Shown: positions 10,809 to 42,939 of the stretch, piece after piece
Layout: each line of letters begins with the position of its first letter
Numbering within the stretch: the stretch's first letter is position 1
From: a virus
Lineage: Duplodnaviria; Heunggongvirae; Uroviricota; Caudoviricetes
DNA: 64,000 nucleotides
IMG/VR virus record: IMGVR_UViG_3300028591_000113
Span: 46,087-110,086 of that record
Reading direction: 5' to 3' (one strand)
Made by a program: the position numbers and the translations under genes
Notes under the pieces: model-generated
Database searches by the model: none
Told to the model about the DNA's origin: nothing
Seen by the model: only the letters and a program-made list of their open reading frames with translations

Positions 10809-10884
10809 GGGGGTATAGCTCAATTGGGAGAGCAACTGCTTTGCAAGCAGAAGGTTGTGGGTTCGATTCCCATTACTTCCACCA
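10809..10884 (+). tRNA. tRNA-Ala (TGC) with G3-U70 identity pair
   Basis: Acceptor GGGGGTA/TACTTCC (G3-T70 wobble), anticodon loop TTTGCAA, T-stem GTGGG/CCCAT. Confidence 0.8.
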
Positions 10885-11023
10885 AATAGTTAATTATAGA
10901 GAAGGGAAACTCTTAAAACCGCTAGTAGATGGTAAGGCAAACGAAAAGTAATAAGTTGTCTGTGCAAACGATCTGCGCGAAATGCTCGGTTATAGTTGTC
11001 CGTTGACTAATACAACTAGAAAT

Positions 11024-11101
11024 ACAGAGTTGGTCTAGTGGCTAGGACGCCTGATTTGGGATCAGGACACTTCCCGGGTTCGAGTCCCGGACTCTGTACC
11101 A
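11024..11101 (+). tRNA. tRNA-Pro (TGG)
   Basis: Acceptor ACAGAGT/ACTCTGT perfect, anticodon stem CCTGA/TCAGG loop TTTGGGA, T-stem CCGGG/CCCGG. Confidence 0.85.
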
Positions 11102-11161
11102 TTCGTAAACCTGATGCTTTCTGGCGCTAGACGACCAATTATGCGCTGTCAGGAGATTTCT

Positions 11162-11248
11162 ATGAAAGCATTTCTAAATAAACTTTGGCAATTATTTGTT
11201 GAAGGCTGGAATAAGCAATTAGAAGCGCAAATCCGCTTTCATAAGTAA
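11162..11248 (+). CDS. tiny ORF (28 aa) between tRNAs
   Basis: AGGAG RBS; weak. Confidence 0.15.
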   Translation: MKAFLNKLWQLFVEGWNKQLEAQIRFHK

Positions 11249-11289
11249 TGCAGCAGGAAATCGGAACCTGCGTAAAACACCGATTATAT

Positions 11290-11365
11290 GCCCTTCTAAC
11301 CCAACGGTAGAGGTAGCAAGCTCAAACCTTGTTCAGTGAAGGTTCGAATCCTTCGAGGGGTACCA
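11290..11365 (+). tRNA. class-I (short variable arm) tRNA with anticodon CAA (Leu codon UUG), 76 nt
   Basis: Acceptor GCCCTTC/GAGGGGT, anticodon stem GCAAG/CTTGT loop CTCAAAC, T-arm GAAGG-TTCGAAT-CCTTC; variable loop only 5 nt, unlike bacterial tRNA-Leu. Confidence 0.6.
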
Positions 11366-11366
11366 T

Positions 11367-11452
11367 GCCTTCGTGGCGGAACTGGGAGACGCATCGCACT
11401 TAAGATGCGATGTCCACTGGGCGTGTGGGTTCGAGTCCCACCGAAGGTACCA
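11367..11452 (+). tRNA. tRNA-Leu (TAA), class II
   Basis: 86 nt, 7-bp anticodon stem CATCGCA/TGCGATG loop CTTAAGA, long variable arm, T-stem GTGGG/CCCAC. Confidence 0.8.
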
Positions 11453-11473
11453 TTTTTAGAAACAGGAGAAATT

Positions 11474-11734
11474 ATGACAAGAGACGATTTAATTAGCATT
11501 TTGAAAACCAAGAAGTTCGACTGCATGAATGATATGGTTGAATACTTTGAAAAATGCGGTTTTAACAGCGAAATTGAAGATGCTAATTGGGAATGTCTTT
11601 CTGTCAGATTTATAAACGGCACTGATAAATTGGATTTCAGTAGCCTTTACAACCCATGGCTTAATACATGGGAAGTCATTGTCTATGAATGGGATAACCC
11701 ATTTGATAATGACTACGAAATTAAATTAAGATAA
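11474..11734 (+). CDS. hypothetical protein (86 aa)
   Basis: AGGAG RBS, ORF between tRNA genes. Confidence 0.55.
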   Translation: MTRDDLISILKTKKFDCMNDMVEYFEKCGFNSEIEDANWECLSVRFINGTDKLDFSSLYNPWLNTWEVIVYEWDNPFDNDYEIKLR

Positions 11735-11737
11735 AAT

Positions 11738-11812
11738 ATCGGTCTAGTGTAACGGCAACACAGCTGTCTCCAAAACAGCACGATCAGGGTTCGAATCCTT
11801 GGGCCGGTGCCA
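11738..11812 (+). tRNA. tRNA-Trp (CCA)
   Basis: Acceptor ATCGGTC/GGCCGGT, D-stem GTGT/CACA, anticodon stem GCTGT/ACAGC loop CTCCAAA, discriminator G. Confidence 0.75.
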
Positions 11813-12203
11813 AATATACTCGTGTTGGTGCAATTAGTAGCATTCCAGCGGCACCAGGTATTAGACGATAAGACTAATACAATGACCGCGGGCGACGTAG
11901 GTGCAATTCCTATTTTACGAGTGCCGAACAGTTTATAATTGGTCGCAACTGGAACAGCGTGTCCAGCGCTGGCGATAATAATGGCTAAAAGACGAAAGCT
12001 CTGCCGCGCCAAATAGATGCCGTGTAACTCGGCTAGCAGAAACCATAAGAACACGAGGGGCTCCGTCTGCGAAAATAACTTTAGCCCCACCATGATGAAG
12101 ACTTATTGCTTATTCGGGAGTTTATGCGTTAATTTGCCCGTTATTGCTCGATACAGAGCCTGTGTATTAGGCGCATAAGTTGGTTCAATTCCAACATTCA
12201 TCA
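11813..12203 (+). other. structured non-coding stretch with tRNA-like fragments (T-arms GTAGG-TGCAATT-CCTAT and GTTGG-TTCAATT-CCAAC with CACCA end) but no canonical cloverleaf; possible intron-containing or degenerate tRNAs
   Basis: Two T-arm-like elements, acceptor-like pairings 107-113 nt apart, direct repeat GGTGCAATT x2. Confidence 0.25.
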
Positions 12204-12268
12204 CCAAAGATAATTGTCTAGGTGTGCGGCATAGACAAGAATAGCGCAATTCTCGAGCCGCACAATAT

Positions 12269-12343
12269 GCTGACGTAGTTTAATGGCAAAACCCGACGTT
12301 GCCAACGTTGAGACCGTGGGATCGGTACCCACCGCCAGCTCCA
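12269..12343 (+). tRNA. tRNA-Gly (GCC)
   Basis: Acceptor GCTGACG/CGCCAGC, D-stem GTTT/AAAC, anticodon stem CGACG/CGTTG loop TTGCCAA, T-stem GTGGG/CCCAC (loop ATCGGTA atypical). Confidence 0.6.
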
Positions 12344-12737
12344 AACATTTATAATAGAGAAAGCAAACTCTTAAAACTCCGGGTACGTTTACGCCGCAAG
12401 CTGAAGACTCAGTGATTTTAATCGCCGTTGTTAATTACTAGAAAAAAAATGACATTCTTTAGCCCATAGTCCCGACTATGAGAAGCGGAGACCTCCGAAT
12501 AATAGTGGGTGGAGCCACTTGGTCAGCAGATGAGAGGTTATCGGGACAAACTAATTTATAACTATCTTCAAGCGATTACCTGAGCACATCTACGTTAACA
12601 GGATGCAGGAGAGACTTGGCTCCCGATAAAGCCCGTCCATAATGTGGGACGAATAGAGAAGACCGGAATGTATACTGTAAATCCAAATAAAAGGCTGCCG
12701 GTTGGAGAAAAAACGTCAAAGGAGATAGTTATTATAT

Positions 12738-12813
12738 GCTTCGTTACGTCAACTGGGAGACTACAATCCTTACAAGATTGTGGCTGTAGGTCCGAGTCCT
12801 GCACGGAGCACCA
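12738..12813 (+). tRNA. tRNA-Val (TAC)
   Basis: Acceptor GCTTCGT/ACGGAGC, anticodon stem CAATC/GATTG loop CTTACAA, T-loop TCCGAGT. Confidence 0.7.
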
Positions 12814-12814
12814 T

Positions 12815-12888
12815 GCCCGATTAGTATAGTGGTAATACTCTTCCTTGCCAAGGAAGCATCGTCGGTTCGAATCCGTCATCGAGCTCCA
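12815..12888 (+). tRNA. tRNA-Gly (GCC), second copy
   Basis: Acceptor GCCCGAT/ATCGAGC (one mismatch), D-stem GTAT/ATAC, anticodon stem CTTCC/GGAAG loop TTGCCAA. Confidence 0.6.
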
Positions 12889-12978
12889 GATGTAAATAAG
12901 CTCAGTTAGAAGAGTTCACTGACTGTATAAAGTAAGTACACGAGCTACCGTGGATAAAATTAGCCAACTCTTTTGTAT

Positions 12979-13056
12979 GCGCCTTTAGCTCAGCTGGGAG
13001 AGCGCCACTTTGACGTAGTGGAGGTTTCATAGGTTCGATCCCTATAAGACGCACCA
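12979..13056 (+). tRNA. tRNA-Val (GAC)
   Basis: D-arm GCTC-AGCTGGGA-GAGC, anticodon stem CCACT/AGTGG loop TTGACGT, T-stem ATAGG/CCTAT. Confidence 0.75.
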
Positions 13057-13070
13057 TAAGACAATAATTA

Positions 13071-13097
13071 GGTGGACTAGGTCCGCCTTTTTTGTTA
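13071..13097 (+). terminator. Rho-independent terminator after tRNA array (GGTGGAC-ta-GGTCCGCC + T6)
   Basis: Hairpin + TTTTTT, immediately followed by conserved upstream motif. Confidence 0.7.
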
Positions 13098-13133
13098 TAA
13101 TAATTATAGAAAAGTAAAAGAGGAATTATATTT

Positions 13134-13463
13134 ATGCGTTGCTTAGACCTTGAAAACTTAAAATTAGGATGGATTTCTCCAACAGGAGAGTTCGTTTTTT
13201 GTCGTTATGGTGACCATACTAAACTTGCTTTTGAAATTTGCGAACGTTTAGGTGTTGATATTGACCCTCTTGCTGAAGAAGACCCAGAAATCTTTTTAAT
13301 CAGACATGACTGGATTTTAGTTCACGCCCCAGGATTGGACCACATTACTGCGCATTATGACTATGCTATCACAGAAGAACAGCAATCTGTTCTCAACTGG
13401 TTAGGTGTAGAAAACCGTTGCGAAGTTAGTGAATGCCCAATTTATGGGAAAGACTACTTATAA
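13134..13463 (+). CDS. hypothetical protein (109 aa)
   Basis: ORF after conserved TTATAATAATTATAGAAAAGTAAAAGAGG motif. Confidence 0.6.
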   Translation: MRCLDLENLKLGWISPTGEFVFCRYGDHTKLAFEICERLGVDIDPLAEEDPEIFLIRHDWILVHAPGLDHITAHYDYAITEEQQSVLNWLGVENRCEVSECPIYGKDYL

Positions 13464-13488
13464 AATTAAAGAAAGAAGGAAACTATAA

Positions 13489-13734
13489 ATGGAAGCAATC
13501 ACCAAAAAGGAACAAATTGAATATTATCAAGCCTGTTTATGTGGCTTATTAAGAGCCTTAAAATGTGTAGAAAAATCTAAAACTATATCATGTAGCGTAG
13601 CACCAATAGAAGATGCGAATAATGTTATTTTCTGGTTAGAACGTAATGATACTTGTATATTAAAGAAACTTGTTAAACAAGAATTAAAAGAAGTTAAAAG
13701 AAAACTGAAACAATTAAAGAAAGAAAGAAACTAA
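13489..13734 (+). CDS. hypothetical protein (81 aa), basic C-terminus
   Basis: ORF with GGAAAC RBS. Confidence 0.5.
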   Translation: MEAITKKEQIEYYQACLCGLLRALKCVEKSKTISCSVAPIEDANNVIFWLERNDTCILKKLVKQELKEVKRKLKQLKKERN

Positions 13735-13736
13735 TT

Positions 13737-14099
13737 ATGAATATGGACTTAAAGAAACTTACAGCTGAAAGTGAACACTATGCGCGAAAAATCGCAGATA
13801 AGACTTTTAAGCGCGGCGTTAGAGATTTGAAGAAAGAAATTCGCAAACAAACTAGAGCAGGAGAATATAATGCTATTCTTTATACTAGATATTGGATTTC
13901 TAGCGAAGTAGAGGAACGAATTAAAAAATACTTTGAAGAACAAGGTTTTTATATTCGTAAGTATCGTTTCGGAGAACTTAATGAATATGTGGAAGTTTGT
14001 TGGGGTCCAGGCATTGAACGCCATAAAGAAATCGATGCAATTCAACTTAAAATGATGGAAGAAATAGCCGAACAAGAGAAGAAAGAAAGCGAGGAATAA
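13737..14099 (+). CDS. hypothetical protein (120 aa)
   Basis: ORF, tight spacing in operon. Confidence 0.55.
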   Translation: MNMDLKKLTAESEHYARKIADKTFKRGVRDLKKEIRKQTRAGEYNAILYTRYWISSEVEERIKKYFEEQGFYIRKYRFGELNEYVEVCWGPGIERHKEIDAIQLKMMEEIAEQEKKESEE

Positions 14100-14101
14100 T
14101 T

Positions 14102-14593
14102 ATGCGCTTACTTACTGAAAATGAAATCAAATTCTTAAAAGATACTGGTTGGACTCCAACCGTTTATCAATGCGGTAATAGAGAATGGTATCGCACTATC
14201 TTTTGCGATGAAATCAATGAAGACCAATTAAGCGGTGATTTTACTAATAATGACGAAGTTCAACAACATTGCGCAATTTATGCGGATGAAAAATATGGTA
14301 TTGATTTACCTGCTTTTTATGATGATTTAGTTAAAGATATGGACGGCATCTCTCTTGAAGAAGAAGCACCATACATTATCTATTGTCTTTTAACAGAAGA
14401 AGAATTAGATAGCAAAACCGACGCAGAATTATTACAGTGGTTAAAAGACTGGAAGTATTTCTTCGGTTATCGCAAAGCAGACGAACAAGATGCTCGTATC
14501 GCAAGATATGAAGCCAAAGGCTTGTTCAATGGTGCGCGTGAAGTCCGCACCTATGATGATGGCAGTATTTATATTAGTGAATTGGAGGACTAA
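14102..14593 (+). CDS. acidic hypothetical protein (163 aa)
   Basis: ORF overlapping upstream stop (ATAATTATG). Confidence 0.6.
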   Translation: MRLLTENEIKFLKDTGWTPTVYQCGNREWYRTIFCDEINEDQLSGDFTNNDEVQQHCAIYADEKYGIDLPAFYDDLVKDMDGISLEEEAPYIIYCLLTEEELDSKTDAELLQWLKDWKYFFGYRKADEQDARIARYEAKGLFNGAREVRTYDDGSIYISELED

Positions 14594-14596
14594 TTT

Positions 14597-14878
14597 ATGA
14601 AATACCAAGATATACCTTATAATAAAATGGCTTTTACGCCTGAAGAAGCAGAACAATGCGCAGATTTTGTTAAGTATTTAATGCAAATGAAAAGCCCAGA
14701 CCATTACAATGAAATATGTATTACTTCTGATGGCTATTGCACTATTGTTTGTTGGGTTCATAAACCACATGATAATTCCTACGGTGGTAGTTTTGAGTTC
14801 GTTGATGAAGACCAAGATATTTGGACTGATAAAGAAATCGACGAAATCGTCAAAGCCCGTATAGAAAACCAAAAATAA
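14597..14878 (+). CDS. hypothetical protein (93 aa)
   Basis: ORF. Confidence 0.55.
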   Translation: MKYQDIPYNKMAFTPEEAEQCADFVKYLMQMKSPDHYNEICITSDGYCTIVCWVHKPHDNSYGGSFEFVDEDQDIWTDKEIDEIVKARIENQK

Positions 14879-14880
14879 CT

Positions 14881-14909
14881 TGACAACGAGCTTTAATTAT
14901 CATATAATA
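14881..14909 (+). promoter_or_regulatory. consensus sigma70 promoter TTGACA-17nt-TATAAT
   Basis: Perfect hexamers at 14881-14886 and 14904-14909. Confidence 0.7.
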
Positions 14910-14915
14910 TAAATG

Positions 14916-15843
14916 ACTAGATAGGGATATTGTGCGCAGTATCCCGAGCCTATCCTTGTGGGTAGGTGACTGACAAGTTGACCGACAGGTCGTTAAACTG
15001 CTGCTCACATAGTCCATGCGGAGCTTAATTGAGAAGAGGACATTTGATACTAAAAGATAATCCGTGAAATCTCAAATGATGCGGTGTCATCCACTTAGGG
15101 TAAAACCTGAGGACCTATTACTTCCTTAATTAGGGTTGAGATATTGTAGCGGTCGGGGATCTTTGAATGAGAGTAGGGTTGGCGCGCTCTCAGGGTAACA
15201 ACTTAGTTTGTTTTGTCGGCGTAGAGACGTTAAACCTACTGCTACCAATCTGACCAACCGGTTGCGTCAGTGAAACCTAGGATAACATGGACCTAGCGAC
15301 TTGAGTATGCGTTTACGGCCCGGGGTTACCCGCGCGGCGCATGCTAGTGGTTCCCACCATTCGGTGCTGAGGGATTGATCACCCAACGCGGTCCAACGTG
15401 AAAGCCGAAGAAACGCGGGAGATTCCCGCCTAGTAAGGGTTTGGCTCTTACACCTGTGAAAAAATGAAGGGATCGTTCCCCTTACTGTCCAGTAACTCTG
15501 GGCGGTGTGCTGGTGCCCAGCCTTGTCAAGCCGCAGGTAAAAGGTCACAGTTGAGGTGTGACTGAATAGGTAATGGTCTAAAACCTGCCGAGTTTGGTAA
15601 ATGACAATTAACCCAACCTCATTCTTTAGTTTGTTGGTGTAATCTAGCAGAAAACCATCTAGCTTCGCAATGTGCTAAAATACTAGTCAAACATTGTTTG
15701 AGAGTCCCAGGGTTGAGAGTGAAAGTCTAGCCACTCTCGTAAAATCATAGGCCGATAAGGTCTCTGGGCAAATGGATAGAAAAGTACCCTAAAATTCTAT
15801 CCAACTATTTGAAAATTAAGGTGGACTATGTCCACCTTTTTTG
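14916..15843 (+). ncRNA. about 930-nt ORF-free GC-rich transcription unit (promoter to terminator); candidate large structured ncRNA
   Basis: Stops in all 3 frames throughout, GC about 48% vs about 36% coding, perfect promoter upstream and terminator AAGGTGGAC-tat-GTCCACCTT+T6 at 15818-15843. Confidence 0.5.
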
Positions 15844-15878
15844 TTATAATTATTATATAGAAAAGTAGAGGTATATAT

Positions 15879-16133
15879 ATGAGAAAGTTAACTAAAACTA
15901 TCAATCGCAGACGTAAAAATTACAAACCAACAATCGGCTTAACATCAAAAGACGGTAGTTACCGCAAAAGTGTTAATGCTACTGTTTATTATATTAAACT
16001 TCAAAAGAAAAGAGATGCCGAGGCTGAACGAGAAGCACGAAAATTTCTTATGAACTTCTTAGAAGAAAAGATGCCTAAATTTTTTGGTATGCTTAATGCG
16101 TTTGCTAACTTAGGCGACTGGATGTATTATTAA
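15879..16133 (+). CDS. basic hypothetical protein (84 aa)
   Basis: ORF after conserved upstream motif TTATAATTATTATATAGAAAAGTAGAGG. Confidence 0.55.
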   Translation: MRKLTKTINRRRKNYKPTIGLTSKDGSYRKSVNATVYYIKLQKKRDAEAEREARKFLMNFLEEKMPKFFGMLNAFANLGDWMYY

Positions 16134-16146
16134 AAAGGAATTAATT

Positions 16147-16662
16147 ATGCCAAATGAAAAGATAAAAGTTCTATTCTTAGATGTCGATGGAGTTCTAAAC
16201 TCTACCGCAGAACTTTTTGATGACCGCGCAATTAATCCGAAAAAATTAGAAATCCTTAAAACTATTATTGATAAGACAAATGCTAAGATAGTTTTAACTT
16301 CTACTTGGCGTTGTTTTGTTAATAAGTTAAGTGCTGTTATTGAGGCACTTGAAACTGTTAATTTAGAACTCTATGGCATTACTCGTGAAGGAGTTGCTAT
16401 GAAAGACTTCAAAAATACTCCTTGGGCTAATGTAAAACGTTGCCCTTCCTATATTTATGAAGATGATATAAATAACGATCGCGGGGCAGAGATTGCCTGG
16501 TGGATTTGGTGCAGAAGAGAAAAAATAGATAAGTTTGCCATCGTTGATGACGAAGATGTTGATATTCGTAAGTATTTCCCAAATAACATTGTGAAAACAG
16601 GATTTTCAACAGGGCTTACTTCAGAAGACGCGGCGAAAATAGTAAAGATACTGGAGGATTAA
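16147..16662 (+). CDS. HAD-superfamily phosphatase (DxDxV motif FLDVDGVLN)
   Basis: N-terminal motif I LFLDVDGVLN, motif II S/T (LTSTW), C-terminal acidic Asp cluster (VDDEDVD). Confidence 0.6.
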   Translation: MPNEKIKVLFLDVDGVLNSTAELFDDRAINPKKLEILKTIIDKTNAKIVLTSTWRCFVNKLSAVIEALETVNLELYGITREGVAMKDFKNTPWANVKRCPSYIYEDDINNDRGAEIAWWIWCRREKIDKFAIVDDEDVDIRKYFPNNIVKTGFSTGLTSEDAAKIVKILED

Positions 16663-16664
16663 CC

Positions 16665-17060
16665 ATGAGTATTTTAGACAGTGAATATTTTTATGATGTT
16701 TATTGTAGTAAATTAGCAGACGAATGTAATAGTCTTAAAGAGGCTTTATCTTGCTATTGCGAGGAATGTGGCAATGGTGCTGATGTTATTCGTTATTATG
16801 TGGAACGCCATGAAAAAGACGAAAACTTTGAAACAGAAGTTGAACTTTTAGGCTATCCAAAAATCGCGCAATTACTTGACATTTTATTGCCTACTAAGTA
16901 TGACATTATGAAACCTTGGTATAAACGTCAATGTCTCAGTTTACTCGGAGAAGACGATAAAGACTTAACTGCGCACGAAAAGCATTGGAAGCGCATTATT
17001 GCTAATATTTATGATTATTACAAAAAAGGTTTCGATAAAGTTGACGAAACTCTTGACTAA
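16665..17060 (+). CDS. hypothetical protein (131 aa)
   Basis: ORF. Confidence 0.55.
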   Translation: MSILDSEYFYDVYCSKLADECNSLKEALSCYCEECGNGADVIRYYVERHEKDENFETEVELLGYPKIAQLLDILLPTKYDIMKPWYKRQCLSLLGEDDKDLTAHEKHWKRIIANIYDYYKKGFDKVDETLD

Positions 17061-17248
17061 ACCCGAAAATTATTTTATAATACTTATAGAAAGATAAGAA
17101 AATATCTTTTATTAGTTGAAAGGAGAACTACGCTATGACAAAACTAATATCTAAACAATTTAGACTCAGTTGCCAACGCTCAATGAAGTGTATGTTTTCC
17201 TATGCTAGTAAGAGATAATTAGTTTTACCTAATACCACGATTAATTAT

Positions 17249-17283
17249 TACCACTAGTATAGGAAATACTAGTGGTTTTTTAT
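17249..17283 (+). terminator. Rho-independent terminator (ACCACTAGTA-n-TACTAGTGGT + T6)
   Basis: 10-bp perfect stem + TTTTTT. Confidence 0.7.
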
Positions 17284-17287
17284 TGAT

Positions 17288-17363
17288 GCGTGGGTACCCA
17301 AGCGGCTAAGGGAGCTGGCTGCAACCCAGTTATTCGGGGGTTCGAATCCCTTCTCACGCTCCA
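17288..17363 (+). tRNA. tRNA-Cys (GCA)
   Basis: Acceptor GCGTGGG/CTCACGC, anticodon stem GCTGG/CCAGT loop CTGCAAC, T-loop TTCGAAT. Confidence 0.75.
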
Positions 17364-17378
17364 TACTTGGATCGTTCG

Positions 17379-17456
17379 CCAAGCAGTTCTAAGGCCCTCG
17401 GCCCATAACCGAGTTATCGTGGGTGCGAATCCTACACGATCCACCAAAATAATTTA
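17379..17456 (+). tRNA. tRNA with CAT anticodon (Met or Ile2-lysidine type), C33 in loop CCCATAA
   Basis: Acceptor GGATCGT/ACGATCC perfect, anticodon stem CTCGG/CCGAG, T-stem GTGGG/CCTAC. Confidence 0.6.
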
Positions 17457-17515
17457 TAGACATAATTGAAAAGTTATGTTATAATAAATATGTAAGAAAA
17501 AGAAAGGAAGATATT

Positions 17516-17863
17516 ATGTCTGTTCTTAAAACACAAGGAGATTTTAGAATCTCCCAAATCAAAAAATTAACTCAATTATGTCCTGAACCCGTGTTAGAAG
17601 CGCGACCAATTAAAGAAGGTCTTAGTTTGGAAAAAACTTATTTAGACCCAGCAGACGGTAAAGTGCATGCTTACTCTATTGCATCATTCAAGTGGGATGC
17701 TCACAATGAATGTGTTGATATGGAAACTGTTGGTGAACGCTTTATGACAGGTGTTTCAGAAGAAGAATATCCTGCGGTTAGAGAATTAATGCAATTTGCT
17801 ACTGATTTAATTAGAGCCGCATGGGAAAATGAAGAAGAAGGAGACTGGGATTACACCCGTTAA
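17516..17863 (+). CDS. hypothetical protein (115 aa)
   Basis: ORF with AAGGAAG RBS. Confidence 0.55.
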   Translation: MSVLKTQGDFRISQIKKLTQLCPEPVLEARPIKEGLSLEKTYLDPADGKVHAYSIASFKWDAHNECVDMETVGERFMTGVSEEEYPAVRELMQFATDLIRAAWENEEEGDWDYTR

Positions 17864-17873
17864 CCTTCAAGAT

Positions 17874-17953
17874 AACCGTGTCGCCAAGTGGCTCAAGGCA
17901 CCAGACTTTGACTCTGGTATATGTCGTAGGTTCGAATCCTTCCACGGTTGCCA
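17874..17953 (+). tRNA. tRNA-Gln (TTG)
   Basis: Acceptor AACCGTG/CACGGTT perfect, anticodon stem CCAGA/TCTGG loop CTTTGAC. Confidence 0.7.
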
Positions 17954-17955
17954 AT

Positions 17956-18026
17956 GGCTGTATTGTTCAGTAACAGCGTGCGTCTCATAAGCGCATTAAG
18001 AAAGTGCGACTCTTTCTGCAGCCACC
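17956..18026 (+). tRNA. tRNA with CAT anticodon (third CAT tRNA), compact 71 nt
   Basis: Acceptor GGCTGTA/TGCAGCC, anticodon stem TGCGT/GCGCA loop CTCATAA, T-stem GAAAG/CTTTC. Confidence 0.55.
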
Positions 18027-18038
18027 AATACGATATTA

Positions 18039-18060
18039 AAATGCAATTTATTGCATTTTA
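18039..18060 (+). promoter_or_regulatory. perfect 22-bp palindrome AAAATGCAATTTATTGCATTTT (operator-like) between tRNAs, plus second palindrome GTGCAGTAAAATGCAC at 18081-18096
   Basis: Exact inverted repeats seen in sequence. Confidence 0.35.
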
Positions 18061-18102
18061 GGACATAAAAACTTACTTAAAGTGCAGTAAAATGCACGTT
18101 AT

Positions 18103-18177
18103 GGTCAGGTAACTTATATGGTAGAGTGAAGGTCTGAAAAACCTTAGAAGTGGATCCGAGCGCCACCCTGACCACCA
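18103..18177 (+). tRNA. tRNA-Phe (GAA)
   Basis: Acceptor GGTCAGG/CCTGACC perfect, anticodon stem AAGGT/ACCTT loop CTGAAAA. Confidence 0.75.
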
Positions 18178-18182
18178 AATAT

Positions 18183-18271
18183 GCACCTGTGGTGAAATTG
18201 GTAGACACGCCACTTTGAGGGGGTGGTGTCCGTACAAGGACGTGCGAGTTCGAATCTCGCGAGGTGCACCA
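18183..18271 (+). tRNA. tRNA-Leu (GAG), class II
   Basis: 89 nt, anticodon stem CCACT/GGTGG loop TTGAGGG (G37), variable-arm hairpin GTCC..GGAC, T-stem GCGAG/CTCGC. Confidence 0.7.
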
Positions 18272-18395
18272 GATAATTAATTACACTCCGAGACAGAAAC
18301 ACTCATTCAAGTTTCCAGCAACTTATGAGAGCGCATCCGAGAAGAGATTTCGTAGCTTACAATAAAAGGAAGCCAAAGGGAGTAGGTCGCGGAGT

Positions 18396-18860
18396 GTGAT
18401 AATAAATGAAAGGAAACTAATGAAGTATTTTATTTCTTACTTTGCGCGATTAAAGGACTTCACATCTAATATGTTGCCCGTTTCGACCGCAGCATTTGAG
18501 CAGGCTTGGTTCAGAGGTAAGGTAGAACATATACCTGAATTAACACCTCCTACCAAGATTATGGTTGAACTTGAGGCTACTAATCAGATGTGCCGTAAAA
18601 ACTGTCCATTTCATGCACCGTGCGCGTTTATGGACAAGTATAAGGAATATCTTGACTCATTAGATTTTGATAAAGTGATTACAAAGTTAGAATTATTAAC
18701 TTTGAAACACCCAACCGTTGATACTATTGTATTGATGGTTTATGAAAAATATGATGTTCCTTGCGCTGAAAGACCTTGCTTACAAGCGTGGTTTAAAGAG
18801 CATGGAATAGAACTAAAAGAGTGGAATAAGCCGCAAATTAAGAAAACAGAATTGTTTTAG
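18396..18860 (+). CDS. hypothetical protein (154 aa)
   Basis: ORF, TAG stop. Confidence 0.55.
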   Translation: MIINERKLMKYFISYFARLKDFTSNMLPVSTAAFEQAWFRGKVEHIPELTPPTKIMVELEATNQMCRKNCPFHAPCAFMDKYKEYLDSLDFDKVITKLELLTLKHPTVDTIVLMVYEKYDVPCAERPCLQAWFKEHGIELKEWNKPQIKKTELF

Positions 18861-18871
18861 AAAGGATTGTT

Positions 18872-19210
18872 ATGGGTTTTTACGAAGAACATGATGAAGA
18901 TGTCAATCATTTAGCAGATAAGAATAAATTATCTGACGCTGAAAAAATTAAGATGTGCGAGATTCTTATGGATACTTGCGCAGCCTATGACATTCCACTC
19001 AATAGCATTGAAGATGCGCAGAACTTCTGGGAACTAATCAGATATGGTTATACCCACGTTGAACGTGAAGAACAAGCCGCTCTTTATCGCTTTATTAATA
19101 CTCATTATCCACAATTATTCGCAGAGATGGACGAATGTTATGAAAACTTAAAAAAGACATATCCATTGGCTGCGGCAAGTGGAGTTTACGATTATAAGAA
19201 AAACAGATAA
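18872..19210 (+). CDS. hypothetical protein (112 aa)
   Basis: ORF. Confidence 0.55.
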   Translation: MGFYEEHDEDVNHLADKNKLSDAEKIKMCEILMDTCAAYDIPLNSIEDAQNFWELIRYGYTHVEREEQAALYRFINTHYPQLFAEMDECYENLKKTYPLAAASGVYDYKKNR

Positions 19211-19288
19211 TGCTCAGGTACTCGAACTGGTATAGAATGCTGGCTTAGAATCAGTAGTTTGTGGGTTCGAATCCCACCCTGAGCACCA
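19211..19288 (+). tRNA. class-I tRNA with anticodon TAG (Leu codon CUA/CUG), weak D-stem
   Basis: Acceptor GCTCAGG/CCTGAGC perfect, anticodon stem GCTGG/TCAGT loop CTTAGAA, T-arm GTGGG-TTCGAAT-CCCAC; 78 nt with 5-6 nt variable loop. Confidence 0.55.
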
Positions 19289-19310
19289 AACCAGAACAAG
19301 GAGAACAATT

Positions 19311-19496
19311 ATGGAAAAGGTTTACTTTATTTTTGATGATAGAATTTATTGCGGCGCAATCATGGATAAGAAAAGCGATGGTTGGATTGTCGCAGCAGGT
19401 AATGAAGTTATGTGGTTACCTATTACAGAACCACGCTTCAAATCATTAAATGAAGCACTTAGTTATAAATGTGGCGGAGTTTTAACACCACAATAA
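19311..19496 (+). CDS. small hypothetical protein (61 aa)
   Basis: ORF with AAGGAG RBS. Confidence 0.5.
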   Translation: MEKVYFIFDDRIYCGAIMDKKSDGWIVAAGNEVMWLPITEPRFKSLNEALSYKCGGVLTPQ

Positions 19497-19497
19497 T

Positions 19498-19572
19498 ACT
19501 CCTATAGCACAACGGTAATGCAACTGACTCTTAATCAGTGGAGTGAAGGTTCGAATCCTTCTGGGAGTACCA
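19498..19572 (+). tRNA. tRNA-Lys (CTT)
   Basis: Anticodon stem ACTGA/TCAGT loop CTCTTAA, T-arm GAAGG-TTCGAAT-CCTTC. Confidence 0.75.
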
Positions 19573-19576
19573 AAAT

Positions 19577-19656
19577 GCGCCCGTAGCTCAGCTGGTTTTT
19601 AGAGCATCTGACTTTTAATCAGGGGGTCGAAGGTTCGAATCCTTCCGGGCGCACCA
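19577..19656 (+). tRNA. tRNA-Lys (TTT)
   Basis: Acceptor GCGCCCG/CGGGCGC perfect, D-arm GCTC..GAGC, anticodon loop CTTTTAA. Confidence 0.8.
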
Positions 19657-19743
19657 ATTAATTTAATATGGCCCACGGGGTTTCCGGACGGTCCGTGAAA
19701 GCTTAACCTTTACGGAGGCATAAGAAAGGCAGAATTATAATTT

Positions 19744-20052
19744 ATGAGCAGAAGTTATAGAAAATCACCAGTTATTAAAGACAATGGCAAAGGCAAGAAA
19801 AAGCAAAAAGCAATCGCTAATAGAGTAGTCAGAAGAAAATTAAAAAATCCTGATTATGTTGTTCCTAATGGCGGTTCTTATACCAAGGAATACGAATCTT
19901 GGAGAATTGCTGATTATACTTCCAGATGCACTGAAGAAGAAGCCAAAGAAATGTGGCATCGTTCAATGAGAAAATATCCTTGGTTTAAAGAACACTACCC
20001 AACATTAGAATCTTATATGATTTGGTGGAAGAAAACTTATAGGAGCAAGTAG
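19744..20052 (+). CDS. basic hypothetical protein (102 aa)
   Basis: ORF. Confidence 0.55.
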   Translation: MSRSYRKSPVIKDNGKGKKKQKAIANRVVRRKLKNPDYVVPNGGSYTKEYESWRIADYTSRCTEEEAKEMWHRSMRKYPWFKEHYPTLESYMIWWKKTYRSK

Positions 20053-20053
20053 T

Positions 20054-20263
20054 ATGAAATTAACATATACAATTCAATGGACGGATCCAGTTAAACAAAA
20101 TATGCCATTCTTGAAAATTGATGGTGATGATAATATAGCATTATATATTGCCAAAAAGAAATTAGATGAAGGTATGGAAAATGTAGTCATCAGACTTAAT
20201 AAAGCCGTCGAAGGCAAAGAAGATGAGCATTATCCTGCCGTTGATAATGGAGACGTGGAGTAA
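20054..20263 (+). CDS. small hypothetical protein (69 aa)
   Basis: ORF; 3-prime end overlapped by tRNA-Ser(GCT). Confidence 0.5.
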   Translation: MKLTYTIQWTDPVKQNMPFLKIDGDDNIALYIAKKKLDEGMENVVIRLNKAVEGKEDEHYPAVDNGDVE

Positions 20264-20336
20264 TAGGTATCTCAAGAGATTGCTAATCTCTCCAACCTCC
20301 TGGGTTGTCCGGGTTCGAGTCCCGGCGCCTCCGCCA
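20249..20336 (+). tRNA. tRNA-Ser (GCT), class II, 5-prime end overlapping last 5 codons of upstream CDS
   Basis: Acceptor GGAGACG/CGCCTCC (6/7 bp), anticodon stem AGAGA/TCTCT loop TTGCTAA, variable-arm hairpin CAACC..GGTTG, T-arm CCGGG-TTCGAGT-CCCGG. Confidence 0.55.
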
Positions 20337-20339
20337 GAT

Positions 20340-20430
20340 GCGGGCTTAGTTATAAATGGTAAAACTTGTGTTGAAAAAGGAAGAAAACACTAACTGTCCT
20401 TGTTGCGGGTTCAACTCCCGTAGTCCGCTC
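20340..20430 (+). other. tRNA-like element (acceptor GCGGGCT/AGTCCGC, T-arm GCGGG-TTCAACT-CCCGT, no CCA) with unresolved anticodon arm; possible atypical or degenerate tRNA
   Basis: Clear acceptor and T-arm pairing about 91 nt apart; no 7-nt anticodon loop could be placed. Confidence 0.3.
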
Positions 20431-20593
20431 TTTACGTTCTTTTCAGGTTTATGCCATATCTGTAATCAGAAAGGCATACGAGGCTGCTATCGTGAATCGT
20501 AGCTTGGATCAGCGGCGAAGATCCGCTGGCGAGTGATTCTTGCCTAATCCGGCTCGGTCAAGTCGTTAGTAAGTGATTCTTACATGACCATAT

Positions 20594-20683
20594 AGAAGTG
20601 TGAGTGAGTCCGGTTTAAACTACTGGTCTAGAAAACCAGCGAACAGCAATGTTCCGTGGGTTCAAATCCCACCGCTTCTGCCA
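20594..20683 (+). tRNA. tRNA-Ser (AGA), class II, A34
   Basis: Acceptor AGAAGTG/CGCTTCT, anticodon stem CTGGT/ACCAG loop CTAGAAA, variable-arm hairpin GAAC..GTTC, T-stem GTGGG/CCCAC. Confidence 0.55.
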
Positions 20684-20699
20684 AAATTACAAACTACCT

Positions 20700-20786
20700 G
20701 GAGAGCTGTGATAACTGGTAGTCGGGCGGTCTTGAAAACCGTTGTACATTAATGTATTTAGGGTTCGAGTCCCTAGCTCTCCGCCA
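20700..20786 (+). tRNA. tRNA-Ser (TGA), class II
   Basis: Acceptor GGAGAGC/GCTCTCC perfect, anticodon stem GCGGT/ACCGT loop CTTGAAA, variable hairpin GTACAT..ATGTAT, T-arm TAGGG-TTCGAGT-CCCTA. Confidence 0.75.
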
Positions 20787-20790
20787 ATAT

Positions 20791-20868
20791 ACCCTCTTAG
20801 CTCAACTGGATTAGAGCACTTGGCTACGAACCAAGAGGTTGCGCGTTCGAATCGTGCAGAGGGTGCCA
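20791..20868 (+). tRNA. tRNA-Arg (ACG)
   Basis: Acceptor ACCCTCT/AGAGGGT perfect, anticodon stem CTTGG/CCAAG loop CTACGAA. Confidence 0.8.
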
Positions 20869-20871
20869 GAT

Positions 20872-20948
20872 ACCCACATAGCTCAACTGGACAGAGCAAT
20901 GGATTTCTAATCCATCGGTTGAGGGTTCGAGTCCTTCTGTGGGTGCCA
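20872..20948 (+). tRNA. tRNA-Arg (TCT)
   Basis: Acceptor ACCCACA/TGTGGGT perfect, anticodon stem ATGGA/TCCAT loop TTTCTAA. Confidence 0.8.
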
Positions 20949-23349: not shown

Positions 23350-23548
23350 TCGAATAAACTATTCTATAATATTATTGTTCAAAGAAAAAGAAAATAATTT
23401 TATAAATAAATTGTCCCGTTCAAGACAATAAACTGAACTTCCTCCTTTTCTTACGGGGCGCTACGGCGCCCTACCTCTATGAGATAATTACCTTGACGTG
23501 GTATAGAGGCTTTAAACGAAAAATTATCGAGTAAAAGTGAAAAAGTTC

Positions 23549-23577
23549 TTGACTTAGAGAGAATAATTTCATATAAT
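23549..23577 (+). promoter_or_regulatory. consensus sigma70 promoter TTGACT-17nt-TATAAT
   Basis: -35 at 23549-23554, -10 at 23572-23577. Confidence 0.65.
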
Positions 23578-23583
23578 AATTAT

Positions 23584-24454
23584 GCTCACAACGAAAAAGT
23601 ATTATCGAGAGATAAGAAAAAGTAGTTCGAGATACGAGAAACAGGGAAACCTGAAACTCCGCTGGCAAACGAAAATGCTGCCTTGGGCAAGCATAATGGC
23701 CCACCTTGTTCTTTGAAAATTATTTTGCAGCTTGGTGAAGATGGTCTTGCGGACCGCCAAGCAGTGACTCAAGAATGAAAGTGTCATGGGATACTGTGAC
23801 ATAAGTAAGAAACCTAGATAGTGATAGATAGGTAAACCTACTCATAAGAAAAGTAAGGATTGAGCCATGTGGGCAATATGTTAACTTGAACTCTAAACAA
23901 TACTTAAACTCGGCGGTGACAAGAGGCTACGCAGTAACAATTAAGAATGCGCCCCACCGCGAGATACTAGCGTGAGAAACTAGTATCTGGGTTCTCAAAG
24001 GAAACCGATGTCTTGATGTCTAGAAATAGACTATAACCGAGTAAAGTAGTGCGAGTAGCCGTACGACAGGAAGATAGAAAATGGCTTTAATTTGCAAGTA
24101 TGATCGCAAATCCTACACAGAATCTGAAGCTCGGTGAAAGTTGATGAGTAATGACCTCATCTTGTGTTAGTGTCTTAGGACACACTTCAGGAAGTGTAAG
24201 ATCGCAACTTACCCTCAGACCTGCGGTGCAATGTGTGAAACAAGAGTAGTTAATAAGTGTTGTATCATGAATAAAAGTGGGCAAAATGATTTTTAAAGAA
24301 CAAGGTAACTTGTTCAACTCACCTAACAATAGACCCCGTTAATAGTAAGGGATGGACCTCTGGAGCGAGAGCATTACAGGTTGAAGGTAGACGTGGCCCT
24401 TACCGATAGTGAGTTAAATATTAAGCATAGCGTGTCGAAAGGCACGCTTTTTTG
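23584..24454 (+). ncRNA. about 870-nt ORF-free GC-rich transcription unit; candidate large structured ncRNA
   Basis: Promoter upstream, terminator AGCGTG-tcgaaagg-CACGCT+T5 at 24429-24454, no plausible ORF on either strand (only spurious short ones). Confidence 0.45.
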
Positions 24455-24531
24455 TTATTCCTTTCTAATGATAATTGACTTTTAGACCATCAAACTCGAT
24501 ACTAGAAATGTATTAATGGAGGTATAAAACT

Positions 24532-24906
24532 ATGAGTGAAATTATACCTGTTGCTAAACAGAGCCCTCGTATTAAGAGTGGTGTTATCTATTGATACGTT
24601 GGAGACGCCTTCGATATTGATTGAGATATTCATTTAACAGAAGACGAAAAAGCCATCGTATTCCAACCAGGTGATAAGTTGATCTGGAACTTTTTTTCAA
24701 CTACGGATAAAAATAAGCCAGTTCATTCTTTTACTTTTGAATTTCCTGACATTGAAGATAACACAGTAACATTAAAGTTCACCAAGGAAGTCAGCAAAAA
24801 GTTTGCTATCGGTAGTTATACTTACTGCATCAAATTTGAATGCCATGATGGACGCGTTGTTACATTAAATGCTCAAAATAAACTTCAAGTAGAAGCATGT
24901 CACTAA
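24532..24906 (+). CDS. hypothetical structural-module protein (124 aa, 2 TGA-Trp)
   Basis: GGAGGT RBS; ORF intact only with TGA=Trp. Confidence 0.5.
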
Positions 24907-25496: not shown

Positions 25497-25509
25497 GAGA
25501 GGTTAAAAT

Positions 25510-26721
25510 ATGCCAACTAATTATATTAGCAAAATTGAAATCGATGGCGTTGAGTATGAGATTAAGGATACTGTTGCTCGTCAAGGTGGCATTAAATTCA
25601 TTTTATCAACTAACGCCGCAACTACACCTATTGGTGTTCAATGGAAGAGCGGAGACGTCGTTATTACAGGTACTCTTGCTGCCGCAGATGCAGATAAAAC
25701 TGCTTTCTATTTAGTCCCATTAGAGGACCCAGAAACATCTAACAACTATCGTGAATATATCGCCGCAAACACTGGCTCTGGCTATGTTTGGGAATGTTTA
25801 GGAACAACATCAATTGACCTTTCAGATGTCGTTACAAACGTTACATTACAAAAAGGTTTAGGAGATAAAGTATTAGGTGTTGATACGCCATTTACAAATT
25901 CTTCTTCTGCTGTTTCTTTCAACGGCGGAGCAAGTGACACATTCGTTAAATCATACCCAGGCACAAAAAGTAAACTTGAAACAACACAAATTAAAGGTGT
26001 TGGTGCGGACGAAACTGTTAATGTAGTTAAAACCGCAACATCGAAGACAGCAACAAATACGGTTTTTGGAACTGCGACAGAAGCAAGTAAGATTACTACT
26101 GAAAATAAAACTGCTACAAATACAACCTTTGGTACTGATGAAACAGTTAATAAGGTTAGCGCTGGAACCGCAGTCGATGTCGCAACTACAGATACCCCGG
26201 TTACACAAGTTATGACTGGTGATATTAGTGAAGTCTTTACAAATGCGACAGTAGAAAATGAAGTATTAAGATTTACTAAATCTGTTGTCACCAAAAAGTC
26301 TATTACACCTGCGAAAGCAAACGGTTCTATTACTCCGGTTAACATCGGCGCGCAAGTTACAGTCCCACAAGTCGAAAGCAATAGCCAAGTTAATGTTTCA
26401 AGCGTTAAAACCAATGATAGCGTTACTGTTCCAGTCGTTCAAAGCAATGAACAAGTCACTTCAACTGAAGTTATTACTGAATCTAAGACTCTTGCAACAA
26501 GTGCGGCTTCATCTACAGTCGTTGCTACTGGTTCATTAGATGCCAATGATACTACTGGTGCTGAAGTTATGACAGGTCTTGGTAATGCGCAAACAGGAAC
26601 TGCGATTACTGATGTTGGTACTGCTACAGCGGCTGCACAAACAATTACAGTCGGTGATACTGACCAAGTTGATGTTGCCAAATACAACGACTTATCACTT
26701 ACAGTTACTAAGGGTAATTAA
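25510..26721 (+). CDS. Thr/Val/Ser-rich repetitive virion structural protein (fibre/major structural candidate)
   Basis: 403-aa ORF, GGAGAGG RBS, repetitive T/V/S composition, followed by terminator 26733-26766. Confidence 0.6.
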   Translation: MPTNYISKIEIDGVEYEIKDTVARQGGIKFILSTNAATTPIGVQWKSGDVVITGTLAAADADKTAFYLVPLEDPETSNNYREYIAANTGSGYVWECLGTTSIDLSDVVTNVTLQKGLGDKVLGVDTPFTNSSSAVSFNGGASDTFVKSYPGTKSKLETTQIKGVGADETVNVVKTATSKTATNTVFGTATEASKITTENKTATNTTFGTDETVNKVSAGTAVDVATTDTPVTQVMTGDISEVFTNATVENEVLRFTKSVVTKKSITPAKANGSITPVNIGAQVTVPQVESNSQVNVSSVKTNDSVTVPVVQSNEQVTSTEVITESKTLATSAASSTVVATGSLDANDTTGAEVMTGLGNAQTGTAITDVGTATAAAQTITVGDTDQVDVAKYNDLSLTVTKGN

Positions 26722-28713: not shown

Positions 28714-28869
28714 TATATACTAAAATTCATTTTTGCCGAAACGTGACAAAATAACTATATTATATATGTATCAGTATTAAAGGCAAAATTACAGTAATGT
28801 AATGACGCAAAACTATAGGATCCTCCGACGGATAGCCAGTTACCTGACCAATCCTTTGGAGGTTTTTAT

Positions 28870-29445
28870 ATGAAATTAAGAAACAAATTGGCTGCAATTA
28901 CAGCCGCTGCCATGTTAGCTTTCACAGGCGTTGGTTTTGCTGCATGGACTTTCAATAACAGTGTCGCACAAGAACAAGAAGTTGGCACATATGTTACATC
29001 AGCAATCAATGCTAAAAATGTTGCCCTTTCTGGTGACACAACAGTCTATTTAGTTTTAGACCAAGAAAAACCATATTGGTCAACTGCCGTTAATAATGGC
29101 TCCAAACCAGTTGAACTCGCAAATGGTAAAATCACAGTTACACCTGATTATGATTTAACAAATAATAATGATGGTGCCTCTTGGACTTATCATTTAACAA
29201 GTGCCATTACTGTTAGCAGCGACATCGCAAATTATGTTAATGTTACAGGTTTTGACGTTGTTGAAAAAACTGGTACAATTACTGCCGCAGATCATGAAAC
29301 CATCGCAGCAGTCGATTACAACTTACCAAGTCTCGCTTACACTACTAATAAACCAGCAAACTATGCTGATTATACAACAATGTTAAGCGCTGTAAGTGGT
29401 GATATTATTGAATTCTCATTCAACTGCACATTCACACAAAACTAG
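28870..29445 (+). CDS. secreted TasA/camelysin-family-like protein with signal peptide ending ...GFAAW-TFNN
   Basis: N-terminal signal peptide MKLRNKLAAITAAAMLAFTGVGFA followed by AAWTFNNSV, resembling TasA TWAAFND start of mature protein; GGAGGT RBS. Confidence 0.5.
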   Translation: MKLRNKLAAITAAAMLAFTGVGFAAWTFNNSVAQEQEVGTYVTSAINAKNVALSGDTTVYLVLDQEKPYWSTAVNNGSKPVELANGKITVTPDYDLTNNNDGASWTYHLTSAITVSSDIANYVNVTGFDVVEKTGTITAADHETIAAVDYNLPSLAYTTNKPANYADYTTMLSAVSGDIIEFSFNCTFTQN

Positions 29446-42842: not shown

Positions 42843-42939
42843 AGGGGTGTGGCGTAATGGTAGCGCAGCGGTCTTCAAAACCGTAAAGATTCCGTGTCCA
42901 AAGCGGTAGGTGCGGGTTCGACTCCTGTCACCCCTGCCA
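42843..42939 (+). tRNA. tRNA with UCA anticodon (reads UGA), 97 nt, long variable arm, selC-like T-arm GGTTCGACTCCTGT; suppressor/tRNA-Sec-like
   Basis: Acceptor AGGGGTG/CACCCCT perfect + G73 + CCA, anticodon stem GCGGT/ACCGT loop CTTCAAA (U33, A37), about 25-nt extra arm. Confidence 0.65.

Follow-up and report, generated by a model that had tools for sequence, protein, structure and literature searches.

ROOL (Rumen-Originating, Ornate, Large) RNAs are a family described by Weinberg et al. in 2017, with three pseudoknots and about 10 nearly invariant nucleotides (PMC5737381). They occur in phages, in prophages, and elsewhere, frequently in the vicinity of tRNAs, as do GOLLD RNAs (PMC5737381). 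By cryo-electron microscopy (cryo-EM), ROOL RNAs form closed, RNA-only cages: the env-120 RNA is an octamer, the E. faecalis RNA a tetramer or octamer, and the L. salivarius RNA a hexamer (PMC12286853, PMC12990946). In the env-120 structure, a variable linker is disordered and faces the cage interior (PMC12286853). The function of ROOL is unknown, and suggested cargo includes tRNAs, ribosomes, or other molecules (PMC12286853, PMC12990946). GOLLD is likewise a large, ornate RNA of phages and prophages that occurs near tRNA arrays, forms cages of RNA alone, and is also without a known function (PMC12286853). Here, we analyzed a 64,000-nucleotide (nt) stretch of viral DNA (positions 46,087 to 110,086 of IMG/VR record IMGVR_UViG_3300028591_000113), hereafter the window, whose numbering we use throughout. 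On its plus strand, the unit at 23549-24454 is very probably an independent gene for a ROOL-class large noncoding RNA, carried by a large, tRNA-rich phage in which TGA is recoded. The RNA family is already known, and the locus adds a new member to it rather than a new family.

The locus resembles described ROOL RNAs in its full-length match to the family model (RF03087), its core of ~600 nt, its multi-junction fold with covariation, and the placement of its linker. It is also phage-borne and lies near a tRNA island on the same strand, with its own predicted promoter and terminator. It differs in having a structured 3' domain of 100 nt and a 5' leader of ~115 nt outside the model, a closing helix (P1) that is up to ~11 base pairs (bp) longer, and an upstream two-hairpin module with a tract resembling an anti-Shine-Dalgarno sequence. 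Furthermore, the genome that encodes it reads TGA as Trp. The window RNA can be likened to GOLLD, which is modular, its 3' region being conserved and its 5' region variable, although the sequence and fold of GOLLD differ from ROOL's.

Homology, covariation, and limits of the ROOL unit

The original prediction had recommended a search against Rfam. With Rfam 15, the single match in the region was RF03087 (ROOL RNA) at 23707-24300, on the plus strand only. The match scored 196.4 bits (E = 1e-42), where the gathering threshold is 99.1, and covered the entire model (positions 1-574 of 574). GOLLD (Rfam RF01998) was not matched anywhere in the window when the gathering threshold was applied; at E <= 1, both 23350-24600 and 7000-16200 were likewise free of GOLLD. 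The closing helix P1 is built from an inverted repeat of 26 nt (23703-23728 with 24281-24306) and can be extended by ~11 bp past the Rfam model through pairing of 23701-23728 with 24281-24306. With the Rfam match and this longer P1 taken together, the core spans 23701-24306 on the plus strand, and its length of 594 to 606 nt fits the ROOL length criterion of about 580 nt. When the consensus pairs of RF03087 were mapped onto the window, 146 of 159 were present and 114 of these were canonical. A large variable loop at 24064-24129 (plus strand) aligns to unstructured model positions ~352-420 and is the equivalent of the ROOL linker; it is also the segment richest in insertions, deletions, and substitutions among homologs (alignment columns ~735-800). 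The palindromic kissing loop (L18/L15) was sought and not identified unambiguously, with GAUC at ~24195-24198 as a candidate only.

Covariation supported the same fold. We aligned six homologs with MAFFT, independently of the Rfam model, and compared the ROOL consensus with slid controls in which pairing partners were shifted by one to three columns. In the true register, 77% of cells were paired, compared to 35-43% in the controls, and 21 pairs were compensatory, with changes on both sides, compared to 0-4 in the controls; the sample is small, representing about four independent lineages. Many G-U pairs in the core alignment are compatible with the plus strand only. Folding energy relative to shuffled sequences was only mildly unusual (z = -3.5 on the plus strand and -2.8 on the minus strand) and does not by itself discriminate. 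The decisive evidence for an RNA gene is homology together with covariation.

The whole cassette is conserved among relatives of the phage. A neighboring gene for a 404-amino-acid (aa) protein has 345 homologs in metagenomes, and the contigs of the closest ones share the cassette at the same place. Promoter, leader, core, 3' domain, and terminator are syntenic and conserved in L002 (a 124 kb contig; ROOL, 213 bits), L003/L004 (96 kb and 41 kb contigs; 188 bits), and L023 (193 bits), as well as in L019 and L020, which were found by a pattern scan of Joint Genome Institute (JGI) metagenomes and are 98-99% identical to the window. The ROOL core is 80.5% identical to that of the window in L002, 92.7% in L003, and 91.9% in L023. 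Conservation of the 5' leader (79%, 97.5%, and 97.5%, respectively) and of the 3' domain (84%, 98%, and 98%) roughly equals or exceeds that of the core, and the 404-aa gene is 78.7%, 75.2%, and 75.2% identical in the same three contigs. In L005, whose homolog of the 404-aa protein shares 57% identity, the gene order is different and there is no ROOL near the homologous gene.

Beyond this clade, a BLASTN search in distant mode found no ROOL homolog of the unit in 50,697 GenBank phage records, the sole match being a crAss-like phage that shares 51 nt of the upstream hairpin module. When IMG/VR was scanned for exact occurrences of a 26-mer from the 5' leader, there was no match, and a search there for relatives through the 404-aa and 115-aa neighbors gave nothing useful; L001 lacked a ROOL. 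With a ROOL motif, IMG/VR yielded at least 119 pattern matches, so candidate ROOL loci appear to be common in viral contigs. All seven candidates that were checked with Rfam proved bona fide. Four of the seven (L096, L098, L127, and L135) lie among tRNA genes, and two more (L109 and L122) have a UCA suppressor tRNA close by. The ROOLs of other phages have differing neighborhoods within tRNA arrays.

The unit had been described as lacking any credible open reading frame (ORF), a statement that holds under any stop-codon reassignment. A protein-coding gene masked by an alternative genetic code or by frameshifts would be an alternative explanation, and it draws some support from the phage itself, in which TGA is truly reassigned, making standard ORF finding unreliable in the window. 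Such a gene had been named as one observation that would speak against a noncoding unit, and we consider its existence almost inconceivable. Standard-code ORFs overlapping the unit reach 83 aa at most, and those that treat TGA as sense reach only 84 aa on the plus strand and 92 aa on the minus strand. ORFs of 148-165 aa arise only with TAG or TAA as sense, and only on the minus strand; the sole reassignment supported for this phage is that of TGA. Substitutions in the unit showed no codon periodicity against either of two relatives, being spread evenly over the three phases (46/57/51, p = 0.55; 16/19/12, p = 0.46), whereas all five flanking genes had a strong third-position excess in the same test (p = 3e-3 to 9e-19). 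Moreover, the changes are compensatory across helices, and the ATG at 23582 is missing in L002. For annotation, the lesson is that the ORF-free gap at this locus should be labeled as ROOL RNA and not be mined for hidden genes.

The original prediction had placed a transcription unit of about 870 nt between a promoter and a terminator, and both ends were found. A sigma-70-type promoter (TTGACT-17-TATAAT, with 11 of 12 consensus matches) lies at 23549-23577 on the plus strand; neither its -35 nor its -10 hexamer varies among the six homologs, and its spacer deviates only in L002. The entire window contains just 11 promoter-like sites with at least 11 of 12 matches. Because all 11 are on the plus strand and all have a 17-nt spacer, chance matches are unlikely. 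Transcription is predicted to start at ~23584-23586. At 24429-24454, also on the plus strand, an intrinsic terminator consists of an 8-bp stem with a GAAA loop (AGCGUGUC-GAAA-GGCACGCU) followed by T6. In L002, four pairs of this stem are altered on both sides (GCGUG/CACGC to ACAGC/GCUGU), and the T-run is invariant. The predicted transcript is ~866-870 nt long. Its G+C content was correctly said to be elevated (0.416, compared to 0.356 for the window and 0.36-0.38 for neighboring genes), a rise that is modest but real.

Two interpretations of the unit had been proposed, a large noncoding RNA of unnamed family or a very long structured leader for an operon of structural genes. The first stands, now with a family assignment to full-length ROOL, and the second does not. 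We regard the unit as a large noncoding RNA gene rather than a leader because of the ROOL match, the conservation of the cassette in five homologs, and the compensatory pairs. A long structured 5' leader, acting as a cis-regulatory RNA for the downstream operon that begins at ATG 24532, is a highly improbable alternative. The unit does share its orientation with the downstream genes and is separated from them by only 78 nt, the architecture on which the leader proposal was based is present, and read-through of intrinsic terminators is common. However, the terminator is strong, with a covarying stem and an invariant T-run, and beyond it the first downstream gene is preceded by a separate, conserved promoter-like site (TTGACT-17-GATACT at 24475-24503) and by a GGAGG ribosome-binding site and ATG at 24518-24534. 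ROOL RNAs are free-standing in their family, the one of L. salivarius equaling 16S rRNA in abundance (PMC12286853), and the ROOL homologs that we checked have other neighbors, either tRNAs or other promoters. The covarying terminator and the separate promoter-like site, along with the lack of a conserved antiterminator and a variable spacing between the 3' domain and the terminator, are not what is expected of a cis-regulatory leader or riboswitch.

Similarity in architecture to another ORF-free unit, at 14916-15843, had also been pointed out. Both units have a promoter, a terminator, and no ORF, but they have no sequence similarity, and the other unit is not a ROOL. A comparison for shared motifs with the ORF-free stretches at 14916-15843, 9660-10808, and 7339-7800, which the original prediction had proposed, recovered only promoter and terminator fragments by short-word BLAST, and Rfam at E <= 1 matched only tRNAs in the three stretches. 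The other unit, which we delimit at 14880-15850, runs from a TTGACA-17-TATAAT promoter to a terminator formed by GGUGGAC/GUCCACC and T6, with a G+C content of 0.47 and nothing matched in Rfam at E <= 1. It is 84% conserved in L002 (412-1311) and has a 67-nt match in the ROOL-bearing contig L109 (2865-2931), making it a candidate for an undescribed large noncoding RNA.

Modules flanking the core

About 115 nt at the 5' end of the unit and 150 nt at its 3' end lie outside the Rfam ROOL model. The 5' leader (23585-23700, plus strand) is clade specific, with no copy found outside the window clade by nhmmer. It contains three small hairpins, at 23642-23653 (CAGG-GAAA-CCUG), 23661-23681, and 23684-23703, among which relatives display one compensatory pair and two one-sided changes. 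An 81-nt insertion is tolerated at the 5' end of the leader in L002.

On the other side of the core, a conserved accessory domain of 100 nt occupies 24316-24415 on the plus strand. It is framed by an outer stem (24316-24322 with 24409-24415) and a middle stem (24345-24351 with 24397-24403), and its loops are near invariant (CCUAACAAUAGACCCC-UAAUAG, GGAU, GUGGC, and CCGAUAG). In a seven-sequence alignment (A5), 100% of cells in the framing helices were paired, and 8 of 14 pairs were compensatory, compared to 0-1 in slid controls. No family in Rfam matched the domain at E <= 1. At least four lineages (the window clade, L098/L084, L122, and L129) have it directly 3' of ROOL, and in four lineages it begins ~5-10 nt from the 3' strand of P1. 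A covariance model of the domain (R1), run against the window and 124 loci, recovered only ROOL-adjacent copies plus a 76-nt mini version in L109. The ROOL of L096 lacks the domain. We read it as an accessory module, attached to ROOL in one subclade. The minimal copy in L109 (2552-2627; 46 bits with R1) lies 1.75 kb downstream of the ROOL of that contig and just upstream of its match to the 14880-15850 unit, which suggests that the 3' domain is an autonomous module.

The locus could be composite, with an autonomous 3' domain that is not part of the cage-forming RNA and acts either as a ligand- or protein-binding aptamer tuning terminator read-through into the TGA-containing genes or as a separately processed small RNA. 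We consider this unlikely. Near-invariant internal-loop nucleotides within covarying stems give the domain an aptamer-like appearance, the mini version ~1.75 kb from its ROOL indicates that the module can stand alone, and the ROOL of L096 does without it. In the window, moreover, the terminator follows the domain after 14 nt and the first recoded gene comes next, an arrangement similar to that of transcription-terminating riboswitches. Unlike such riboswitches, the domain matches no riboswitch or other family in Rfam and is fused to a 600-nt RNA that is free-standing elsewhere. Its placement within ~5-10 nt of the P1 3' strand in four lineages argues for a physical unit with ROOL. The riboswitch-plus-terminator reading is further weakened by the distance from domain to terminator, which is 14 nt in the window versus ~170-190 nt in L098, L122, and L129 and is thus not conserved. 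A search by eye for an antiterminator linking the two yielded one 6-bp candidate (GACGUG 24389-24394 with CGUGUC 24431-24436), and this was lost in L002, where the terminator stem differs.

The junction between the core and the 3' domain has a feature of its own. The segment GAACAAG at 24298-24304 can pair either with CUUGUUC at 23703-23709, in the longer P1, or with CUUGUUC at 24309-24315, in a local hairpin. GAACAAG and both CUUGUUC segments are invariant in the homologs, except for a shorter hairpin loop in L002. With all three segments invariant, covariation is silent on which pairing forms, and the junction is a possible conformational switch.

Upstream of the promoter, and outside the 23549-24454 unit, lies an associated two-hairpin module (23418-23511, plus strand) whose membership in the unit is uncertain. 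From 5' to 3', it comprises a small covarying hairpin (hairpin0; 23418-22 with 23432-36), a CU-rich tract (UUCCUCCUUUUCUUA; 23438-23452) complementary to Shine-Dalgarno sequences, a GC hairpin (hairpin A; 23455-23472), and hairpin B (23474-23509), which has a conserved inner loop (CCUUGACGUGG), all on the plus strand. The CU-rich tract resembles the 3' tail of 16S rRNA. A small minus-strand ORF behind AAGGAGG, the complement of this tract, was looked for, and none was conserved. The module is 89-92% identical to its counterparts in relatives, compared to 24-72% for the adjacent AT-rich spacer, and has no Rfam match. Hairpin B occurs with seven different covarying outer stems, in which 7 of 10 pairs are compensatory and the inner loop CCUU(G/U)NCGUGG is kept.

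Copies of the module were located in L002 (8051-8123), L122 (~200-290), L129 (~3950-4030, minus strand), L096 (~1390-1450 and ~2190-2260, minus strand), and L010 (2965-3045). Their placement varies. In L002, a second copy of hairpin B is inserted just after the -10 hexamer. In L122, L129, and L096, hairpin B lies inside the 5' leader of ROOL, and only for L122 and L096 was a promoter read upstream of it. Further sites of hairpin B are the 5' untranslated region of an L096 protein gene and a crAss-like phage that lacks ROOL. We regard the module as a possible new promoter-proximal RNA motif. Ahead of both the module and the cassette promoter stands a TATAAT (23365-23370) that is conserved but has a weak -35; it may be an additional upstream start, in which case the ROOL transcript would sometimes include the module.

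A tRNA-rich setting with recoded TGA

In the window, 33 tRNA genes share the strand of the ROOL cassette. An island at 8297-20948 holds 32 of them, all on the plus strand, separated in places by small ORFs and additional ORF-free stretches such as 9660-10808 and a stretch that follows a promoter with 12 of 12 consensus matches at 7304; Rfam recognized only tRNAs in these. The nearest tRNA gene ends at 20948, which is 2.6 kb upstream of the cassette. Downstream of the unit, a 97-nt tRNA with a UCA anticodon is encoded at 42843-42939 (labeled "SeC" by ARAGORN).

Downstream of 24.5 kb, TGA is read as sense. Short ORFs there fuse into reading frames with up to 16 in-frame TGAs each, and this recoded span (24532-61444) contrasts with positions 1-23349, as ORFs of at least 90 aa upstream of 23.35 kb have no in-frame TGA. 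In alignments to relatives, in-frame TGAs of the window correspond to TGA (16 times) or TGG (8 times), and TGG corresponds to TGA three times; the exceptions are one TAA and one gapped codon. Because TGA interchanges only with TGG, we conclude that TGA encodes Trp. The first downstream gene (ATG 24532) has TGA at 24592 and 24622, both of which are TGG in L002, so that in-frame TGA codons begin 60 nt into the gene. Since the TGA-containing genes start right after the terminator, the cassette sits at the onset of the TGA=Trp genes. From about 24.5 to 61.4 kb, many genes would come out in pieces under standard gene calling.

Related phages show parts of the same association. L122, L129, and L109 each have a related ROOL together with ORFs that contain many in-frame TGAs, and the long UCA tRNA of the window recurs in L109 and L122, where this suppressor tRNA lies near ROOL. 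Across 84 ROOL loci, the ratio of ORF length under genetic code 4 to that under code 11 had a median of 1.31, a crude measure that is too noisy to give a frequency of recoding. By context, the phage also resembles the TGA-recoded "Agate" phages of ~127 kb (Borges et al., 10.1101/2021.08.26.457843), in that related contigs are 124-127 kb long and a UCA suppressor tRNA is present. Further points of likeness, again of context only, are a first third of the window that is free of TGA, the presence of TGA in many of the later genes, and a relative, L002, that is partially recoded. As far as it was searched, that paper contains no mention of ROOL (10.1101/2021.08.26.457843).

The genes downstream of the cassette had been taken for structural genes, which our results do not support. 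The recognizable products are an SPFH/Band-7 protein, DNA ligase, glycosyltransferases, RNase H, and topoisomerase II. Searches of PHROGs and Pfam with ten neighbors, and a PDB profile search with the 404-aa family, gave no annotation. The 404-aa protein itself (25507-26721) is rich in Thr and Val and has internal repeats. Its homologs occur on contigs of 100-270 kb, and it has no Pfam, PHROG, or PDB-sequence match. The protein is a good marker for this phage group. Farther downstream, a cyclic di-GMP-I (c-di-GMP-I) riboswitch aptamer at 28772-28847 (59 bits) lies upstream of an ORF at ~28819-29445. It is syntenic in all of the relatives (L002, 13303-13378; L003, 13265-13341; L023, 5591-5666).

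Possible assembly and role of the RNA

From its sequence, the locus would work as follows. An RNA polymerase of host type would start at ~23585 and stop at the terminator at 24429-24454, producing an RNA of ~870 nt. The central ~600 nt (23701-24306) fold into the ROOL architecture, as the covariance-model match and the covariation in the clade show. Given its homology with the three ROOLs of known cryo-EM structure, the core most likely assembles by itself, with no protein, into a closed cage made of six or eight copies of the RNA, in which the variable loop at 24064-24129 would face the lumen. The 5' leader and the 3' domain would emerge from P1 and could be displayed once per cage subunit, or they could be trimmed off.

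Several observations weigh against this account of the locus. Of the model pairs present in the window, 32 of 146 are noncanonical, and several helices fit poorly (the register of P1 in the model, and helices 9 and 26), from which we conclude that the window copy is a divergent member of ROOL. The promoter, the start site, and termination at the locus are predictions. Oligomerization into a cage, which is built through pseudoknots and intermolecular kissing loops, and its stoichiometry are extrapolated from the solved ROOLs. The link to translation or recoding is one of co-location in a handful of related phages; most of the recovered ROOL loci are in contigs of 30-50 kb and add no evidence of recoding. 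The imperfect fold could also mean that the copy is a decaying, nonfunctional relic of a ROOL, as only 78% of model pairs are canonical and some helices are a poor fit. We give this explanation very little chance. The match extends over the full model at a bit score double the gathering threshold, and nucleotide identity in the cassette (80-93%) equals or exceeds that in the neighboring 404-aa gene (75-79%). Furthermore, purifying selection is indicated by the compensatory changes and by a promoter and terminator that stay intact from lineage to lineage.

Taking the locus as a functional ROOL gene, its surroundings invite a more speculative idea. The 32-tRNA island, the onset of TGA=Trp genes, and the UCA suppressor tRNA fit published speculation that, during infection, ROOL and GOLLD act on the machinery of translation (tRNAs or ribosomes), without being a test of it. 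We tentatively propose that the RNA is an extended ROOL, in which the cage core is fused to an undescribed and independently mobile 3' domain and is accompanied by the two-hairpin element and a tract mimicking the 3' tail of 16S rRNA (CCUCCUUU). The accessory modules would then be handles that engage the translation machinery (tRNAs, ribosomes, or Shine-Dalgarno sites of mRNAs) when TGA becomes sense. We consider this proposal unlikely. If true, it would be the first testable functional hypothesis for ROOL.

ROOL is among the few known natural RNAs that build protein-free cages larger than the ribosome. The locus described here sets such an RNA in a defined context: a phage of ~125 kb with 33 tRNAs, a UCA suppressor tRNA, and TGA=Trp genes that begin right after the cassette. 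It is also a well-delimited natural unit, consisting of promoter, leader, core, 3' domain, and terminator, which could be transcribed as is for structural work. Finally, the covarying 3' domain and the upstream hairpin module are candidates for new RNA motifs, and if they are handles for a ligand, a protein, or tRNAs, they could point to the function of ROOL.

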